A stretch of DNA of 64,000 nt, from UHGV virus genome UHGV-0141727; one strand, given 5' to 3'. This stretch comes from a virus. Position numbers and translations under genes: made by a program. Below are positions 3,897 to 58,960 of the stretch, piece after piece (position 1 is the first letter of the stretch; every line of letters starts with the position of its first letter). The notes beneath the pieces were generated by a model. That model searched no databases. It was not told the DNA's origin and saw nothing but the letters and a program-made list of their open reading frames with translations.

Positions 3897-4000
3897 GCAG
3901 TCGCTACCGGAGCAGTGACCGCGATCCTACTCGATCACGTGCCGTCGGATCAACAGTGTATAAAAACACACTGTGTTAGAAAATTAAGCTAGCTTTTAGC

Positions 4001-34036: not shown

Positions 34037-34084
34037 GTGTTAGTATGGTTTAATCTTAATTTTCTAACATAAAACATTAGAACA
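34037..34084. promoter_or_regulatory. operator-like site with TGTTAG/TTTTCTAACA/CATTAGAACA half-sites
   Basis: recurring motif family, directly upstream of plus-strand gene 34085. Confidence 0.4.
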
Positions 34085-42123: not shown

Positions 42124-42165
42124 AAACTGTGTTAGAAAATAAAACTCAATTATCTAACACAGTTT
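42124..42165. promoter_or_regulatory. perfect 13-bp inverted repeat AAACTGTGTTAGA/TCTAACACAGTTT operator-like site upstream of rdgC operon
   Basis: member of TGTTAGAA motif family. Confidence 0.45.
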
Positions 42166-49659: not shown

Positions 49660-49889
49660 TGCTTTGGCGTTATGACTCCCTACCGCGCATCGGCTGAAAG
49701 TTAGTCGTCAAAAGAACCTTCAACGGGAGCCGTTTGCGTAATGGATTTTGTCCAGATTGTGATTTCCAGAATAGTGTCAACAATTTTTTTGAATTTTTTA
49801 TTCGCTCTGAATTTGGCCTAGGTCATTTTGGCGTAGATGTTTGCTTTTGTAACATAAAGCTTCAGTTTGTTTACATGAAGGATGGTTTT

Positions 49890-51285: not shown

Positions 51286-52227
51286 TTAACTAATAATCCA
51301 GTCGGTTGCTGCTACATCTTCTGGCTGCAAATCAATCGCACAGATCTTACCGTCGCGAATGGTGCGCCAGTTTTTCCGTGAGCCTCTTTCGGGCCATACC
51401 CAGACACTTTCAGGCCAGGATGCTCGACGGCATACGGTTGCATACCCTGTTTTAATCTTCTCTCTGGCGGTATGCAACGACAGGTTTGCCTTTGGACTTT
51501 CAGGCACAGGATGGTGAATGGCCTGAAATAGCCCCATCTTGGGATGATACCAGCGTTTGTTACGTGGTTCTGCCTCCGACATAACCTGCTTAAAGGCTTT
51601 CCGGAAGGGGGCCAGGGCCACAATGGAACGTCGCGCAAGCAAACCGTCGGGAGTTAAAAACTCATGCGTATCAGTGGGTATCCGGTAAGCGTTGACCAGG
51701 TTACGGCATTTGGCTTCAGTCAGGCCACATTTCGCCGCCAACTGGCGGTAGCCAATGTAGCCTTCCGGAATATTGCCTTTCTTGATCTGCTCGACGGTTT
51801 CAGCGACTTTGGACACTTGTGCCGATACTTCGGCTACCTGGGCATTAACGGCGTTGATCCGGCGTTCATGCTCAAGATGCATTTGCGCCATTTCAGCCAG
51901 AATTTCGGCTTTTGATTTTAACTGTGCCCGGGCATTCTCCAGTTCGCGCCAGCGGTCCACCAGCCGGGCGGTGAATTCGGGAGAGAGCTGCGCGACGACA
52001 ATAATGCTGTCTCGTTTGCCTTGCTCGCCTTCAAAGACATAGACCGGATCTTTGACAACCTTCCCTAAGTTATTGATTCTTTCGACGAACTCATTTTGAG
52101 TTTCTCGGATGACACCGCTCGCCATCATATTGCGAATGGTACGTAAAACGTTGCCATGACGACTACCAACTAACTCTGCAATATCCAGGCTATTCATTGT
52201 AGCTTTTTGGGTGATAGACAGATTCAT
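51286..52227 (-). CDS. Rha-family antirepressor (Ant-like), intact copy
   Basis: 313-aa ORF with Rha N-terminal motif; paralog of frameshifted 1299..2203. Confidence 0.65.
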   Translation of the reverse strand: MNLSITQKATMNSLDIAELVGSRHGNVLRTIRNMMASGVIRETQNEFVERINNLGKVVKDPVYVFEGEQGKRDSIIVVAQLSPEFTARLVDRWRELENARAQLKSKAEILAEMAQMHLEHERRINAVNAQVAEVSAQVSKVAETVEQIKKGNIPEGYIGYRQLAAKCGLTEAKCRNLVNAYRIPTDTHEFLTPDGLLARRSIVALAPFRKAFKQVMSEAEPRNKRWYHPKMGLFQAIHHPVPESPKANLSLHTAREKIKTGYATVCRRASWPESVWVWPERGSRKNWRTIRDGKICAIDLQPEDVAATDWIIS

Positions 52228-52459: not shown

Positions 52460-52620
52460 ACTAAGTTAAGGAGCTACCGCGTGAGGTTCCAATCTCAATG
52501 GCGGTAGCACTGACTGGGTTGGAACTACCGGCGTCAAAGGGAACCGGCCTGCCTTTCGGCAGCCCAGCCAGCACTACCATTGATCTCTGAGCTAAACGCT
52601 ACGTATGGCTGTGCGATGGC
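52460..52620 (-). ncRNA. candidate c4-like antisense/leader RNA region upstream of icd (inference only)
   Basis: ORF-free structured region between a terminator and icd; position analogous to P1 c4. Confidence 0.2.
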
Positions 52621-52624
52621 ATGA

Positions 52625-52651
52625 CACAAAAAAAGACGCTTTCGGCGTCTG
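52625..52651 (-). terminator. intrinsic terminator AGACGC/GCGTCT plus T7 on minus strand
   Basis: hairpin immediately followed by TTTTTTTGTG. Confidence 0.55.
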
Positions 52652-52755
52652 TGTCGCCTTTGACATTATCCGGGGTTCCAATCCCGGCACCCGTTTTTCT
52701 AAGGTGCCGTAGAAATATACCCCACGATAATGCCAGGGCGCAACTGTGTGTTTTC

Positions 52756-52923: not shown

Positions 52924-53254
52924 TTTGACACCCCCAGCGCGAGTAAAGAATGCAGATTATCGCGTGAGTGGCGGACAACGAGTGATGGGAAAAGACAGTA
53001 GCTGTTCATAGTGTAGTGACTCCTTGCTTTTGGAGCCGCCATCGACTGTTCCACGGTCTGGTGGCGGCGCAATAAAGGTTGGAACACCGTGAGTCAACGG
53101 GGGCTTTTCAGCCACCTATATTGCACCGCCATTGGTATGGCGGCGGCAATCATACGAAAAACCAAACGGTTTGTCTCAAAAAGTTGACCGGTGTACCAAT
53201 CGGTTGTGAATGTACAACGGTGAATTTCACAATTCAACTTAAAATGTTAGAAAA

Positions 53255-53830
53255 CTAATTTATTAATTCAGTCACCATCTGATACAACGTCATTTCATCG
53301 GCATTGTGCCGCCTGAAATCTGCTTTGCCGCCTATTTTTCCATCAGCATGAACAGGGACCAACCAGGGGTATTGCTCGCGTATCTCTGCTGGCGCTGCGT
53401 GTTGATGGTGCCATTTACACAAAGGGAGAACGTATTTATGCGCGTTCTCTGCCGTTCTCCCGAAGATGTGGTGCAGGGATACCACAGGGCTATGCTGTCC
53501 GTGCATATGGCAGGCAATGCAGGGGAGAGCACCGATGGCAGTTTGTATCCGGCGCTCATCTGCTGTGAGCGTTCTGCCTTTCAGGCCACGTGACGTGCGC
53601 GTTTTTTTGACTGGAGCAGAAGCGGCCTTCTCTTTTCTTCGCTGTTCATATTGCTTCGCTTTTTCAATTTTCTTTTGCCGATATTCAGGCGATGCAGCCT
53701 TTTCTCGCGCACGCTGCTGCTGGCGTTGAGCTTGCTGAAGACGCTTTGCCCTTTGTTCCTCCCGCCATTTCGGATCAGCCAGTTTTTTCAGGGCTTTTTG
53801 CGTCTGTTTCTCCCAATAGCTTTGCTTCAT
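53255..53830 (-). CDS. Ref-like HNH-type nuclease (P1 recombination enhancement function-like)
   Basis: ORF 53255..53872; Lys/Arg/Gln-rich N-terminus, C-terminal Cys/His cluster CIACHMHG...HHIFG...PLCKWHH. Confidence 0.45.
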   Translation of the reverse strand: MKQSYWEKQTQKALKKLADPKWREEQRAKRLQQAQRQQQRAREKAASPEYRQKKIEKAKQYEQRRKEKAASAPVKKTRTSRGLKGRTLTADERRIQTAIGALPCIACHMHGQHSPVVSLHHIFGRTAENAHKYVLPLCKWHHQHAAPAEIREQYPWLVPVHADGKIGGKADFRRHNADEMTLYQMVTELIN

Positions 53831-53872
53831 AGAAATACCCGGTTTGTCTACATCGCCGCTATGGTTGATCAA

Positions 53873-53911
53873 ATGTGTTAGAAAATCAAAATTGATTTTC
53901 TAACACAAAAT
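53873..53911. promoter_or_regulatory. near-perfect 34-bp palindrome TGTGTTAGAAAATCAA AA TTGATTTTCTAACACA in divergent promoter region
   Basis: strongest member of the recurring operator-like motif family. Confidence 0.5.
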
Positions 53912-53946
53912 GAAGATACTTTTTTCGGACGCTATATCAGGAGGTC

Positions 53947-54102
53947 ATGATGCTTGTCGCAATAAGTGCAATCCACCAGCAATCCGGTACAGAAATTGGG
54001 TTGCTATATGCCCTGTTTTTCACTGTCCTGGCGTTGTTTGAGCTGGGTATTGAACTCTTTGCTCTCATTAACTTTTGCGTAACGTTCCTGGGGAAACTTT
54101 GA
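53947..54102 (+). CDS. small hydrophobic peptide (51 aa), not in supplied ORF track
   Basis: AGGAGG RBS; MMLVAISAIHQQSGTEIGLLYALFFTVLALFELGIELFALINFCVTFLGKL; stop overlaps next start (TGATG). Confidence 0.35.
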   Translation: MMLVAISAIHQQSGTEIGLLYALFFTVLALFELGIELFALINFCVTFLGKL

Positions 54103-54713
54103 TGGCTATACGCATTATGAAAATTTACATCGCGGGTCCGATGACTGGTTATCCCGACTACAACCGCACAGCGTTTTTTTCGAAAGCAAAAGAGCTGATG
54201 GAGGAAGGGCATATTGTTCTGAATCCGGCGCTGTTACCTGCTGGCCTCTGCCAGAGCGAATACATGGATATTTGCCTTGCTATGGTGCGTTCGGCTAATG
54301 CGGTCTATTTGCTCAAGGGGTGGGAGGAATCAGTTGGCGCTCGTGCAGAGCACGAGCTGGCTCAAAAGCTGGGGCTGAATGTAATTTATGAGTCACCAAC
54401 CAACATTGAATGCCAGGTTGCTCCGCATATTTACCGGGAACTGGTCAATGCACTGCGTGATATCGCTGCTGTATATCACGGCACAGAACAGCTTCGTGAG
54501 CGTTTAGCCCATACCATTTCCTATTACCTGTCTGCATCTCATGAGCACAAGCTCCGTCAGAAGGTAATGATCAAATTTATCATGAGGTTATCGAAATCCC
54601 TGGCAAACGCCGATCCAAAGAATCCATTACCGAAAGTGGCAATGAATTACCTGAAGTCCTGCAACATTGTTTCTGAAGATGGCGTTCTTTTGGTTAGAAG
54701 GAGTTCTGCGTGA
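54102..54713 (+). CDS. DUF4406-like (nucleoside 2-deoxyribosyltransferase-like fold) protein with extra C-terminal region
   Basis: ORF 54075..54713; MKIYIAGPMTGYPDYN N-terminal signature. Confidence 0.5.
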   Translation: MAIRIMKIYIAGPMTGYPDYNRTAFFSKAKELMEEGHIVLNPALLPAGLCQSEYMDICLAMVRSANAVYLLKGWEESVGARAEHELAQKLGLNVIYESPTNIECQVAPHIYRELVNALRDIAAVYHGTEQLRERLAHTISYYLSASHEHKLRQKVMIKFIMRLSKSLANADPKNPLPKVAMNYLKSCNIVSEDGVLLVRRSSA

Positions 54714-55027
54714 GCTGGCGGGGATGGGGAAGGGCAGAAATCATGATACTCCGCCAGTGCGCCGGGACTATGACAGTCGAGGGTATTGGGAGACTGATCG
54801 GGCGTACCGGTGGTGCTGTCAGGACTAAAGCGCGGCAATTGCGGATCAGCATGATTCTGAAAGGTGACTTTCACCAGTCAGCCAAATACCGGCAGAGCGA
54901 TATAGAGCTGGCGCGGCAGCTTCATCAGTGTGGCGTTCCCCGCCGTGAGATCGCAGAAAAACTCGAAATGCCCTTGGGCATGATTAATCAGTACGTTTAT
55001 TTCGAAAGGAGAGTGCATGAAGTCTGA
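54710..55027 (+). CDS. putative HTH regulator
   Basis: 105-aa ORF, GTG start with AAGGAG RBS; HTH-like ELARQLHQCGVPRREIAEKL. Confidence 0.35.
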   Translation: MSWRGWGRAEIMILRQCAGTMTVEGIGRLIGRTGGAVRTKARQLRISMILKGDFHQSAKYRQSDIELARQLHQCGVPRREIAEKLEMPLGMINQYVYFERRVHEV

Positions 55028-55520
55028 AGGTTTAACGCCCGCACAACTGGCAGAGCGTAACGCTGAGTATGTAACGGAAATTTCCCGACTTGAGAAAGAG
55101 CGCGCGGCGCTGGCGGCGGAGAATGCACTTGCTCGTAAAGCTGTTCAGGCATTCTGTGATGTTGTTGGCGACAACACTGAGATTATCTCCGAGTTGGTTG
55201 GGCGAGATGGCGTTCTGGTTATTTTGGAGGCCATGAAAGTAACAGGAAATATGCCAGCCACCGACGCTTTCCTGGCTGAAATACGTGCGGAGGCACGCAA
55301 CGAGGGGATTAACTACACCGCAAGCCGCCTTGCTGCCGCTTTCAACCACGGATTTATCAATAAGTCTTTACGTGAAGTTTTCGACGTTACACGCATGATT
55401 CTGTCAGCGAAAGAAGAGTTGGCTAATGAACCGCACCCAATTGATGGCCTGTCCGGTGAATATGCGGAGAAATCCCTTGAAGAATGGGCGGAACAGATTC
55501 GCAAAGGAGTTCAGTCATGA
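55017..55520 (+). CDS. Ea22-like protein
   Basis: [12 protein letters not shown] motif shared with 56701..57411. Confidence 0.5.
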   Translation: MKSEGLTPAQLAERNAEYVTEISRLEKERAALAAENALARKAVQAFCDVVGDNTEIISELVGRDGVLVILEAMKVTGNMPATDAFLAEIRAEARNEGINYTASRLAAAFNHGFINKSLREVFDVTRMILSAKEELANEPHPIDGLSGEYAEKSLEEWAEQIRKGVQS

Positions 55521-55750
55521 GCATCCGAACTGAACATGGATTTGGTCCGTCAACGGTCGAAGTCGAATGGCTTGATGATTGCCCTAAGTGCCAGCACGGC
55601 AAAGCCAAGGTAACAGGATGGTCGGTAACCAAAGATTCTTTGTGGGCGGGTGATGAGGCCGTCTGTTCCAAATGCGGTCACAAAGGCGAAATCGATGCTG
55701 ATGGAGAGAATGCCTGGGTGGAATGGGACGAAATCGAGGAGGCACAATGA
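55517..55750 (+). CDS. small zinc-ribbon protein
   Basis: ORF 55484..55750; ATG 55517 with AAGGAG RBS; CPKCQHG...CSKCGH. Confidence 0.4.
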   Translation: MSIRTEHGFGPSTVEVEWLDDCPKCQHGKAKVTGWSVTKDSLWAGDEAVCSKCGHKGEIDADGENAWVEWDEIEEAQ

Positions 55751-56379
55751 GCAATATCGACACACTGGCGCTGCGTGAGGCGGCAGAACGTGCAATTCCG
55801 GCAATGGAACGCCTGTTAATGTTGCCAGTTGATGATGATCTGATAAGTGAACAGGAACTTAAAGATTACGGTGTGGATATTGATGCGCTCAACGCCTTCA
55901 AATTTCTGGCCGGACCAGAAACCGTGCTGGCACTACTGGATGAACGGGAAAGAAACCAGCAATACATCAAACGCCGTGACCAGGAGAACGAGGATATTGC
56001 GCTAACGGTAGGGAAGCTGCGTGTTGAGCTTGAGGAAGCAAAATCAAAACTCAACGAGCAACGCGAGTATTACGAAGGTGTTATCTCGGATGGGAGTAAG
56101 CGTATTGCAGAACTGGAAGCACGGGAAATAAAACCAGCCAAAGGTGAAGTTCTTGTCGTTGTTTCTGGTTTTACTGGTTGCGGAAAAAGCGCCATTGCCG
56201 GGGAAATAGAAATCGCGATGAAGGCTATTGGTGTACCGGTTCAGTGGACTAATGGCGATGCGGAAAAGCGCATGACAGGAGCTGACTGGCTGACAGCAAT
56301 TGAGATGTACAAACCAACTGTGCGCATCGTGGAAGTTAATGTGCCACGCGCCCCTGGCATTCGCATCAAAGGAGAGTGA
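55747..56379 (+). CDS. Ea22-like protein with Walker A-like C-terminal region
   Basis: N-terminal [10 protein letters not shown]...KDYGVDID module shared with 60980..61732; GFTGCGKS motif. Confidence 0.5.
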
Positions 56380-56380
56380 G

Positions 56381-56704
56381 ATGACCACATCGCATTCTGC
56401 AATCACCCAGGAAAAAGTATTTCGCTTGCTCGAACGTCTGGAGGCGCTCGCCACGGAGGAGGATATATCCCCGGAGATGCTGGTCGAGTGCAGCCGTGTG
56501 ATATTGCGTCGCAAGAACGACATCGCGCGGCTGACATCCGGCGCACCATCCGTATCAGCCAGTCCAACGCTTTATTGCAGCTTCTGCAACAAATCCCAGC
56601 ACACCGTTAAAAAGTTAATTGCCGGTGACAACGTTTTCATCTGCAACGAGTGCGTGAAAGATTGCAACAACATTATCCAGGAAGAGCAAAGGGAATCAGC
56701 ATGA
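56381..56704 (+). CDS. protein with ClpX-type C4 zinc-finger domain
   Basis: ORF 56300..56704; ATG 56381 with GGAG RBS; [36 protein letters not shown] matches the ClpX N-terminal zinc-binding domain as recalled from memory. Confidence 0.55.
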
Positions 56705-57411
56705 AATTTTCCAAATTTTCTGAGTTGGTGAATCGTATTTTGTCCAACAACCACAGCCATCGTCGCGATATGGATGTAACAATCGTTATTCATTCGCCTG
56801 GCAGCATTGGTTCAACACCTTCAGTTGAGGTTCAGTCAATTCACGCTGGTTTTGATTGGGATTCCGGGAAAGTGCTGATTTTCCCAGCACAGCCACTGAC
56901 CGCGCTAACACCAGAACAGATTACTGATATCACGGATAGTGTGCGCAAAGGTCAGTCTTGGCACGCATATCAGGAATACAAGAAGCATAAAGAGCAGTTG
57001 GAAAAATTGTCGATTGAACTTGATGCTGCAAGACGGCGCATTACAGAACTGGAGAGCGAACGCGCGGTGCTGGCGGCGGAGAATGCGGATCTGAAGTCTG
57101 TGCACCCTCAACCATTCGGAGCTGAGATGATGAAGGCTCTTGATGCGTATGAGAAGCATCAGGATGAAGTGCCAGAGACTGGAATGCTCAATGCATTTTT
57201 CATCTTGCGCGACAGTATCCGTGTTGACACCCCAGCCACCGATGCTTTCCTGGCTGAAGTACGTGCGCAGGGCGTGGATATGGCTCGTAACGCGATGATT
57301 GATTTTGTCGATGGTGAAGTTGGTCCAAACAAGAATGTTCCGGGGCTGATTAGAGGCGCAGAGATATGCGTAAGTATTGCTGAACAGCTTCGCAAAGGAG
57401 GCAGCCAGTGA
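56701..57411 (+). CDS. Ea22-like protein
   Basis: ORF 56650..57411; ATG 56701; [12 protein letters not shown] motif. Confidence 0.5.
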
Positions 57412-57683
57412 ATATCGACACGACAATAACGATCGATACGCTCCTAAATTCCGGTCTGGCACTTCTCGGTTGGCTTTACATCATGTCCCGTACATGGCGA
57501 TGGCTGGGTTCCATTTTCCTGAAACAGTGGAAAAAACGGCGCAAACATGAACTACGCCAGAAGGCATTAGAAGCGTTCTATGACGCATTTGAACTTGGCA
57601 GCATTGAACCAGGCACAACAGCGAGGATAGCGACAAAAGGCGACCTGATGATAGTGATGTTCAGACAGGAGAAAACAAAATGA
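57408..57683 (+). CDS. small membrane protein
   Basis: GTG start with AAAGGAGG RBS; one TM segment. Confidence 0.35.
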   Translation: MNIDTTITIDTLLNSGLALLGWLYIMSRTWRWLGSIFLKQWKKRRKHELRQKALEAFYDAFELGSIEPGTTARIATKGDLMIVMFRQEKTK

Positions 57684-57904
57684 CAGAACAGACGATGACA
57701 AATCGCGAACTTGTTGATGCCGCGATTGAACTTGCTGGCGATTTTTATTCCATGATGGGTTACGAACATCGTCCTGGTTTTAAGTATTGGGAGTCACCGC
57801 ATCCGCAAGAACAACAGGTGTTTGAAATGGCCTGCCGTGCTTTTGAGGTTATTCGCGGTTCTGATGTGATGGAGGCCGTTGCCGACTTGGAGGATGAAGA
57901 GTGA
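57680..57904 (+). CDS. hypothetical protein
   Basis: ORF 74 aa. Confidence 0.3.
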   Translation: MTEQTMTNRELVDAAIELAGDFYSMMGYEHRPGFKYWESPHPQEQQVFEMACRAFEVIRGSDVMEAVADLEDEE

Positions 57905-58212
57905 GCATCATTGTAGAAATGCCGGTAGAACGTGATGAATATGGCTGCTGGACACATCCGGAGTATGAAAAGTTTTGCGCAGGTCGTGAATATATATCCA
58001 CTGAGGAATTTGACGCCTGGATGAAGGAAAATAATCTTCAGTGGACTATTCGCAGTATGGATGAAGATGATTTTAATCTGGACGCAGATGGCCCCGATAT
58101 TGCCGCCTGGGAACCAGAGCGACCAGAGGGCGAAGGCTGGTTTGTTGGCTCTATTCATGACACTGAAGATGGTCCGGTTTGTATCTGGCTGCGGGAGAAG
58201 GTTGCCGCATGA
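57901..58212 (+). CDS. hypothetical acidic protein
   Basis: ORF 103 aa. Confidence 0.3.
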
Positions 58213-58895
58213 CCCAGGTGCTGCATGAAGTGAATTTATATAGCCGTATTGATGGTTCAGGCTACAGAAACATATGGGTTGTTGGTGATTTGCACGGTTG
58301 CTACACCCTACTTATGAATGAACTCCATCGTGTGGATTTTGACCCTACACAGGATTTACTGATATCGGTTGGCGACCTTATCGATCGCGGCACCGAAAAT
58401 GTTGAATGCCTGGAGCTATTGCAGATGCCCTGGTTTCGGTCGGTTATGGGAAACCACGAGCGATTAATGATCGATGCGTTAAGTCCCGCAGGCAACGTGA
58501 ATAACTGGCTAATGAATGGTGGTCAATGGTTCTTCATGCTGGACGCTGATCGGGAAATATTAGCCAGGGCGCTGGTGGAGCTGGTAAGACGTTTGCCCTA
58601 TATCATTGAGCTGAACACCGGGCATGAAACTATCGTTATAGCCCATGCCGACTATCCTGATAACGAATACCAGTTTGGTAAACCTGTTAGCGATCTCAAT
58701 GTTACCTAGCGGCGTGAGCGATTTTATGACGCGGTTGATGGTGTTGGTGGAATAATCACTGGTGCAGATAGCTTTATTTTCGGGCATACGCCAGTAAGCA
58801 GCCCGAAATCTTTCTGGAACCAGCACTACATAGACACTGGTGCGGTTTTTTGCGGAAATCTGACGCTAAAGCAGGTGAAGGTAGGGCAGTCGTAA
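58209..58895 (+). pseudogene. lambda-type Ser/Thr protein phosphatase interrupted by in-frame amber codon at 58707-58709
   Basis: GDLHG, GDLIDRG, GNHE motifs before the TAG; GHTP and IDTGAVF motifs continue in frame after it. Confidence 0.6.
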
Positions 58896-58925: not shown

Positions 58926-58960
58926 GATGTTAGAATATTGATTTTAATTTTCTAACAGAT
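58926..58960. promoter_or_regulatory. operator-like inverted repeat TGTTAGAA-N14-TTCTAACA upstream of 59000 gene
   Basis: member of recurring motif family. Confidence 0.4.

Follow-up and report, generated by a model that had tools for sequence, protein, structure and literature searches.

A small hydrophobic peptide encoded immediately upstream of an enzyme-like gene raises the question of whether the two form a dedicated module or are simply neighbours in a larger operon. We examined this question for positions 53,947–55,027 of a 64,000-nucleotide (nt) stretch of the virus genome UHGV-0141727 (the whole stretch is hereafter called the window), in which genes for a peptide, a DUF4406 protein and a helix-turn-helix (HTH) protein follow one another on the plus strand. 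An original prediction, made from the window alone, had described the peptide as translationally coupled to the DUF4406 gene and had likened the pair to toxin/effector or nucleotide-targeting modules. We found that the locus is an ordinary early accessory operon and that nothing marks it as a toxin or defence module. The three genes probably stand nearest the promoter in an early accessory operon of 12 genes, which belongs to a D6-like phage-plasmid and lies divergently from ref.

The peptide gene (53950..54102, plus strand; MLVAISAIHQQSGTEIGLLYALFFTVLALFELGIELFALINFCVTFLGKL) is preceded by the Shine-Dalgarno (SD) sequence AGGAGG (53939..53944, plus strand) and begins with two tandem start codons, ATGATG. 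The ATG at 53950 is the likelier start because its SD spacer is 5 nt, compared with 2 nt for the ATG at 53947; it gives a peptide of 50 amino acids (aa), which matches the annotation in phage D6, and the earlier ATG would give 51 aa. The stop codon TGA at 54100–54102 shares its A with the start codon of the DUF4406 gene at 54102–54104 (TGATG). The ribosome-binding site, hydrophobic open reading frame (ORF) and overlap that had been proposed are all in the sequence, with 50 aa likelier than the proposed 51 aa. The ORF had also been reported as missing from the ORF list supplied with the window; this does not extend to public records, where it is annotated as D6 orf88 and as WP_157209371.1.

Fifty-seven ORFs of at least 30 aa overlap the surrounding 4-kb stretch, and ORF size alone is therefore no evidence of a gene; comparison decides. 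The peptide matched the profile of phrog_8890, a 50-aa phage protein of unlisted function, over its full length (E = 6.5e-31, residues 1–50 against positions 1–50). The window and D6 alleles differed at 43 of 153 nt with no insertion or deletion (indel), and the proteins were 70% identical with conservative changes. The peptide frame was the sole frame open in both alleles, the other two containing stop codons in both, and a 91-aa antisense ORF over the peptide gene was broken in D6. The Nei-Gojobori ratio of nonsynonymous to synonymous substitution rates (dN/dS) of the peptide gene was 0.08–0.15, with synonymous sites near saturation, and the deficit of nonsynonymous changes was significant in a binomial test (P = 1.8e-6). 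On this comparative evidence, the small ORF is a true gene under selection, not a mere leader ORF.

The check on loss of the peptide gene in relatives, suggested with the original prediction, was run on 43 D6-like loci from plasmids, viral contigs and assemblies, and the gene stands: the ORF was intact in 41 of them, which comprised 8 protein variants and 15 DNA alleles. Both exceptions were judged to be assembly errors, in that OY757137 has one extra G in a G-run and MK356558 has indels throughout the record, intergenic DNA included. The GGAGG-ATGATG arrangement was kept in 40 of the 41 intact loci (one has GGGGG), and TGATG was kept in all 41. The window peptide was 100% identical to plasmid copies and carries the rarer 'MLVAIS' allele.

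In regards to its properties, the peptide had a grand average of hydropathy of 1.45 and a maximum 19-residue Kyte-Doolittle mean of 2.25. A single-sequence AlphaFold2 (AF2) model gave one continuous helix for residues 2–49 with a predicted local distance difference test score (pLDDT) of 86, and of 93–98 for residues 21–50. Among five aligned variants from both clades, 31 of the 50 positions were invariant; Y20, E31, E35, T45 and K49, all invariant, fell within an 80–160 degree arc of the helical wheel and form one polar acidic stripe. Overall, the prediction is of one long, hydrophobic helix along which an acidic stripe is conserved.

No family in Pfam, NCBIfam or PADLOC matched the peptide, and Rfam at E ≤ 1 returned nothing in 53800–55100, so that no antisense or small RNA (sRNA) family lies over the gene. 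The protein-database search for distant homologues gave only clusters of at least 96% identity, and when plasmids, phages, viral contigs and a set with one genome per species were scanned by tblastn and by pattern, only two allele classes, both D6-like, came up. The carriers were phage D6, whose one genome is deposited in two records, together with 111 plasmid records, 32 viral contigs and a single 3-kb contig of a metagenome-assembled genome (MAG), and the peptide was confined to D6-like elements of Escherichia, Salmonella and Shigella. The MAG contig, JAFAFN010000164.1 (3.2 kb), is assigned to an 'Actinomycetes bacterium' and carries the D6-type peptide gene, whose product is 71% identical to the window peptide; this contig almost certainly derives from an enterobacterial phage-plasmid and was placed in the actinomycete MAG by faulty binning.

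The DUF4406 gene (54102..54713, plus strand) encodes a 203-aa protein that begins MAIRIMKIYIAGPMTG. Its weak internal SD sequence, GGGGAA (54090–54095), lies inside the LGK codons of the peptide gene. The protein matched phrog_5781 (E = 6e-97) and Pfam DUF4406 (PF14359; 120.4 bits, E = 4.4e-35), with residues 6–96 aligned to model positions 1–91, which passes the Pfam gathering threshold of 22 bits over the full model. The proposed DUF4406 signature and about 100 extra residues were confirmed by this match, with approximately 107 residues lying beyond the domain.

The N-terminal catalytic-type domain (residues 6–96; 54117..54389, plus strand) was assigned by Pfam and by comparison of the AF2 structure. 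The AF2 model of the whole protein had a mean pLDDT of 78, mostly 86–98 in the N-terminal domain, and comprised a four-stranded alpha/beta domain (residues 7–96) and four helices. The domain is predicted to have a flavodoxin-like alpha/beta fold of the nucleoside 2-deoxyribosyltransferase (NDT)/DNPH1/MilB type, and the proposal of a nucleoside deoxyribosyltransferase-like fold was borne out by both structure prediction and structure search. This fold is also common to TIR, ThsB and ThsA-SLOG domains; the best structural and profile matches were NDT, MilB and a cytidine monophosphate (CMP) N-glycosidase. The residues conserved in at least 90% of 48 homologues were Y9, A11, G12, P13, M14, T15, G16, N21, F25, G36, P42, L71, W74, S77, G79, A80, E83 and A87. 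In the family profile, KIYIAGP was aligned with the identical motif of the T. brucei NDT (TbNDT), and E83 was aligned both with the Glu of TbNDT GTAFEVG and with the Glu of the S-x-G-x3-E motif of the CMP N-glycosidase. The profile matches to solved members were marginal (E = 0.017 and 0.29); a direct sequence search of the PDB gave one marginal NDT match, and the profile search was slightly better.

NDT-superfamily enzymes use a catalytic triad of Tyr, either Asp or Asn, and Glu as the nucleophile, and the phage enzyme DmtZ has the Tyr/Asn/Glu form (PMC12884076). DmtZ is a dAMP N-glycosidase of the NDT family that exists both as a separate protein and as a fusion with a dUTPase-like enzyme (PMC12884076), and it offers a direct precedent. 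The Tyr (Y9, in strand 1) and the Glu nucleophile (E83, where the helix that follows the third strand begins) are retained in the DUF4406 protein. The DUF4406 domain was found in 780 phage records, some of which were annotated as, or fused to, MazG-like or nucleotide pyrophosphohydrolases; among the structural relatives, some bear the name dATP/dGTP diphosphohydrolase, and some DUF4406 genes adjoin exonuclease or sliding-clamp genes. From the predicted fold, the retained residues and the analogy to characterized relatives, the DUF4406 protein is most likely a (deoxy)nucleoside 5'-monophosphate N-glycosidase acting on nucleotide pools in lytic growth; a signalling nucleotide or NAD is a possible substrate. 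A literature search for 'DUF4406' gave few mentions, with no functional study among them.

The C-terminal extension (residues 97–203; 54390..54710, plus strand) was modelled by AF2 as four helices (residues 101–125, 131–148, 154–168 and 178–186) with a pLDDT of 60–80, and the extension matched no Pfam family. Residues approximately 106–150 (nt 54417–54551; PHIYRELVNALRDIAAVYHGTEQLRERL...) belong to a promiscuous helical phage module of about 45 aa with the pattern PHxYRELVNALRD...GT.QLRERL, which no family describes. The module was present in 240 clusters at 50% identity, mostly matched via query residues 5–49, in proteins of 48–894 aa and often at the C-terminus. Some of these proteins carry DUF551, and one is the P1-like 'putative morphogenetic protein' of phage RCS47. 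The module probably serves oligomerisation or partner binding.

The HTH protein gene (54710..55027, plus strand; 105 aa), annotated by the NCBI pipeline (PGAP) as a 'DNA-binding protein', starts with a GTG at 54710 that overlaps the DUF4406 stop codon (GTGA) and has AAGGAG 6 nt upstream; GTGA was kept in all variants. PGAP places the start at the ATG at 54743. We prefer the GTG start because, in variants with a diverged DUF4406 tail, the conserved stretch opens precisely at the GTG, because the sole change upstream of the ATG is synonymous and because the match to the phrog_323 'transcriptional regulator' (E = 1.2e-26, residues 2–103) begins at residue 2. The GTG-initiated HTH gene of the original prediction thus stands. 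The protein showed sub-threshold Pfam similarity to Sigma70_r4_2 (sigma-70 region 4) and HTH_7 (resolvase HTH), and most of its relatives were from Vibrio phages, with some from Stx phages. These similarities make it plausible that the protein binds DNA.

We then considered the operon as a whole. It spans 53950–58709 and contains 12 genes, of which nine further cistrons (55017..58709, plus strand) follow the HTH gene and encode Ea22-like, ClpX-type zinc-finger, DUF4752, metallophosphoesterase and other proteins, as assigned from the annotation of a 99% identical plasmid, the junctions and the ORF list. All 11 junctions were overlapped (ATGA, GTGA, TGATG and one 11-nt overlap) or separated by a 1-nt gap, and every junction had its own SD-like sequence. 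The TGATG at 54102 is therefore typical of the operon and not special to the peptide and the DUF4406 gene. RNA structure at this junction was not unusual (z = +0.94). The overlap behind the proposed translational coupling is present, but it is generic across the operon rather than specific to the pair.

The peptide and DUF4406 did not co-occur across unrelated backgrounds, and their pairing was found only in the D6-like lineage. The upstream neighbour of DUF4406 was non-hydrophobic in a lambdoid Enterobacter prophage, where the gene lies between a P-like replication gene and the nin region, and likewise in another phage. As the pair is confined to one syntenic lineage, its adjacency carries no independent signal. 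In one plasmid, a peptide of the D6 type is combined with a DUF4406 N-terminal domain that has a stretch of the window type; this indicates that recombination separates the peptide from parts of the DUF4406 gene. Plasmid pGF60-C (NZ_CP172188.1, 1695–3355) carries an IS200/IS605 insertion sequence (IS; TnpB and TnpA) in the 3' end of DUF4406, with the peptide gene and the otherwise D6-like plasmid intact, and the full-length enzyme is therefore dispensable for plasmid maintenance. It was the one plasmid that matched only from the HTH gene on, and a loss of the peptide gene was thus rejected for it. PADLOC and NCBIfam gave no matches for the four proteins searched. With the pair confined to one lineage, no PADLOC or NCBIfam match, no antisense RNA and recombination uncoupling the partners, the suggested toxin/effector or nucleotide-targeting module was not upheld.

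The window segment 53800–55100 was 99% identical to E. coli plasmids of approximately 90 kb, such as pMUB-MIN14-1, and its identity to phage D6, which is a plasmid prophage of the P1 family, was 89%. In pMUB-MIN14-1-type plasmids and D6 alike, the gene order is the Ref nuclease (minus strand), a 50/51-aa hypothetical protein, DUF4406 and a DNA-binding or hypothetical protein, followed by lambdoid-type accessory genes (Ea22-like, ClpX-type zinc finger, DUF4752 and metallophosphoesterase). These identities and the common gene order place the window among the D6-like (P1-family) phage-plasmids of E. coli. All three genes are already public, as orf88-orf89-orf90 of D6 (NC_050154) and as WP_157209371.1, WP_094259661.1 and WP_050571723.1; elsewhere, they are annotated as hypothetical proteins. 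The mosaic relative to D6 is sharp, with recombination breakpoints within genes. The regulatory region and the peptide gene (53801–54095; 55–75% nt identity) are the most diverged part, 54395–55100 (the DUF4406 tail and the HTH gene) is 95–100% identical, and similarity collapses again past 55115.

The operon was said to lie under an operator-like palindrome, and this proved accurate. A perfect palindrome of two inverted 16-bp half-sites with a 2-bp centre (TGTGTTAGAAAATCAA-AA-TTGATTTTCTAACACA; 53874..53907) lies between the operon and the divergent ref, 40 nt upstream of the peptide gene. The neighbouring ref, which encodes a Ref family RecA-dependent nuclease (53255..53830, minus strand; Pfam RecA_dep_nuc, E = 6e-36, and annotation), has an ORF that reaches 53872, and the PGAP start is the ATG equivalent to 53830. 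At up to 3 mismatches, the half-site occurred 9 times in the window against 0.84 expected, and its core, TTTTCTAACA, occurred 8 times against 0.26 expected. The dispersed motif is TGTGTTAGAAAAT(C/T)AA, with copies found by motif search of the window at 2772–2787, 3972–3987, 34056–34071, 42128–42161, 49841–49856, 53245–53254 and 58944–58959. The copy at 42128–42161 is a second palindromic pair, that at 58944–58959 stands just before a DUF968 gene, and that at 53245–53254 stands before the C4 RNA/icd/ant immunity region. Together, the dispersed copies would define the C1 regulon of the element.

From its sequence and by analogy to P1, the palindrome probably serves as a double operator to which the element's own C1-type repressor would bind. 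The P1 C1 operator consensus, ATTGCTCTAATAAATTT, gave no match at up to 3 mismatches in the window, and the motif found is TGTGTTAGAAAAT(C/T)AA; this implies that the repressor specificity differs from that of P1. The element appears P1-like in its working, and the motif is consistent with an operator specificity of its own, outside the P1 immunity type. A candidate sigma-70 promoter, TTGATT-17 nt-GATACT (53892..53920, plus strand), was recognized by eye; it is weak, its -35 hexamer lies within the right operator arm, and transcription would be expected to start near 53927. This arrangement suggests that ref and the operon are transcribed in opposite directions and kept repressed in the plasmid prophage.

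We propose the following explanation for the locus. In the plasmid-prophage state, a C1-type repressor on the 34-bp palindrome would keep the operon silent, and upon induction or infection, ref would be expressed leftwards and the operon rightwards. The product of the first cistron would insert in the inner membrane, where it would most likely self-associate or bind a host membrane protein. The second would be an NDT-superfamily enzyme that cleaves the N-glycosidic bond of a (deoxy)nucleoside 5'-monophosphate, in the manner of DNPH1/Rcl, MilB and DmtZ, and thereby remodels nucleotide pools in lytic growth; its helical module, common to many lambdoid-type phage proteins, would serve oligomerisation or partner binding. 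The third would be a small HTH DNA-binding protein. The stop/start overlaps would roughly couple translation, as at all other junctions of the operon.

Several observations weigh against parts of this explanation. The case for membrane insertion consists of hydropathy and an AF2 model made from one sequence, and the 33-residue hydrophobic stretch exceeds a standard transmembrane segment and contains two Glu residues. The conserved C-terminal LGK may stem from the embedded SD sequence of the DUF4406 gene and not from peptide function. In regards to the enzyme, D56 is the candidate for the third residue of the triad, expected on the helix that precedes the third strand, but it is two residues off the aligned Asn position, and the hidden Markov model places the TbNDT Asn opposite C58. 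A consensus promoter scan of the intergenic region at a threshold of 9/12 gave no plus-strand promoter, and the candidate recognized by eye has just 8/12 matches.

Four other explanations concern the peptide, alone or with its neighbour. The small ORF might be a leader or upstream ORF that brings ribosomes to the DUF4406 start and whose product has no function. The DUF4406 start has the weak SD sequence GGGGAA and overlaps the peptide stop codon, the SD sequence of the peptide gene is strong, and the conserved LGK codons double as the DUF4406 SD sequence, as this explanation would expect. However, a dN/dS of about 0.1 was maintained across the 50 codons with synonymous sites near saturation (P = 1.8e-6), the 31 invariant positions of 50 include E15, Y20, E31 and E35, which are distant from the junction, and no RNA structure gates the junction (z = +0.94). 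We consider a leader ORF very improbable. It is similarly hard to credit that the membrane peptide and the enzyme are a dedicated two-component toxin/effector, abortive-infection or defence module. There was no PADLOC match and no antisense or sRNA family over the peptide; the pair occurs in one syntenic lineage, DUF4406 occurs elsewhere without such a partner, and the coupling is generic. Furthermore, the lytic-type operator position points to expression during phage growth rather than lysogeny, the peptide type is separated by recombination from parts of the enzyme gene, and the IS of pGF60-C truncates DUF4406 and leaves the peptide intact. There is an equally slight chance that the peptide helix and the NDT-fold enzyme form a joint early phage device for host takeover or counter-defence that is specific to D6-like phage-plasmids; for example, the peptide might tether or activate the N-glycosidase at the inner membrane, or might make the membrane permeable as the enzyme breaks down an immune signal or a pool of nucleotides. 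Being one hydrophobic helix that bears an acidic stripe, the peptide would suit oligomeric pores and would be made in the lytic programme, and it could also be a factor for lysis timing or exclusion (a holin/antiholin-like pore or superinfection exclusion) independent of DUF4406. This is quite unlikely, as the neighbours are Ref and early accessory genes with no lysis cassette or endolysin, no Pfam holin matched, and the gene opens an early operon, whereas holin genes belong to the late class. An exclusion gene would usually be active in the lysogen, which the position of the operator speaks against.

In regards to the enzyme, the DUF4406 protein might serve counter-defence by destroying, through TIR/SLOG-like chemistry, an immune signalling nucleotide or an NAD-derived molecule. 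Its fold is common to TIR, ThsB and ThsA-SLOG, and an early accessory operon rich in lambdoid nin/ea-type genes is a typical home of anti-defence functions. The best matches, however, were NDT, MilB and CMP N-glycosidase and not TIR, the S-x-G-x3-E motif is of the NDT/Rcl type, and the fusions and neighbours of DUF4406 in other phages are nucleotide-pool and replication enzymes. We regard this explanation as unlikely, and the early accessory operon with a nucleotide-pool enzyme as its second cistron is the reading that we prefer.

The locus was compared with known systems. D6 orf88–90 and the D6-like plasmids share with the window the same three genes in the same order, the divergent ref, the operator-like palindrome and the TGATG and GTGA overlaps; the left palindrome arm is imperfect in D6, whereas both arms match perfectly in the window. 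Compared with the NDT-superfamily N-glycosidases (DNPH1/Rcl, the CMP hydrolases MilB and BcmB, and phage DmtZ), the window protein has a shorter core (approximately 91 aa) and an added helical tail of approximately 107 aa. Modified DNA is not known from this phage. The window resembles the C1-repressed operons of P1 in that ref stands beside an operator, a 16-bp motif is dispersed and sometimes occurs in palindromic pairs, and a C4 RNA/icd/ant region is adjacent. P1 ref is under C1/Bof control, and we know of no counterpart of the peptide, DUF4406 and HTH genes at this position in P1. P1 contains 22 dispersed asymmetric C1 operators (PMC8546580). The dispersed motif copies of the window mirror these operators, which is why we infer a C1-type operator. 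The peptide resembles Hok-type type I toxins, pinholins and YdfD-like lysis peptides in its length of about 50 aa, its one hydrophobic helix and its location on a mobile element, but it has no sequence or family match to them and no antisense RNA. Unlike the folded leader of Hok-type genes, the peptide gene has a strong SD sequence and a short leader, and unlike genes for lysis peptides, it is first in an early operon and not in a lysis cassette.

In E. coli, Salmonella and Shigella, D6-like phage-plasmids are frequent, with approximately 110 plasmid records in the data covered here. The locus is of interest for the substrate of the DUF4406 enzyme, which is widespread in phages, and for the role of a strongly conserved 50-aa peptide at the start of the lytic programme. 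The window is not the first to raise these questions, given that the same genes are already in public records; the present analysis adds that the peptide is encoded by a real gene under selection and offers a specific N-glycosidase hypothesis (DNPH1/MilB/DmtZ-like) for DUF4406.

Two further parts of the surroundings were recorded. A small operon protein (55484–55750, plus strand), annotated as hypothetical, has two CxxC pairs (CPKCQH...CSKCGH) and is likely a zinc ribbon. A P1-type immI region adjoins ref on the minus strand, with RNA elements identified by RNA-family scores at 52497–52584, 52629–52707 and 53057–53136: a C4 antisense RNA (77 bits), an isrK-like RNA (62.7 bits) and a second C4-like element that scored 42.3 bits, slightly below the gathering score of 45, and is a possible duplicate C4. 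All three elements lie upstream of icd and of a Rha/Ant-type antirepressor (51286–52227, minus strand).

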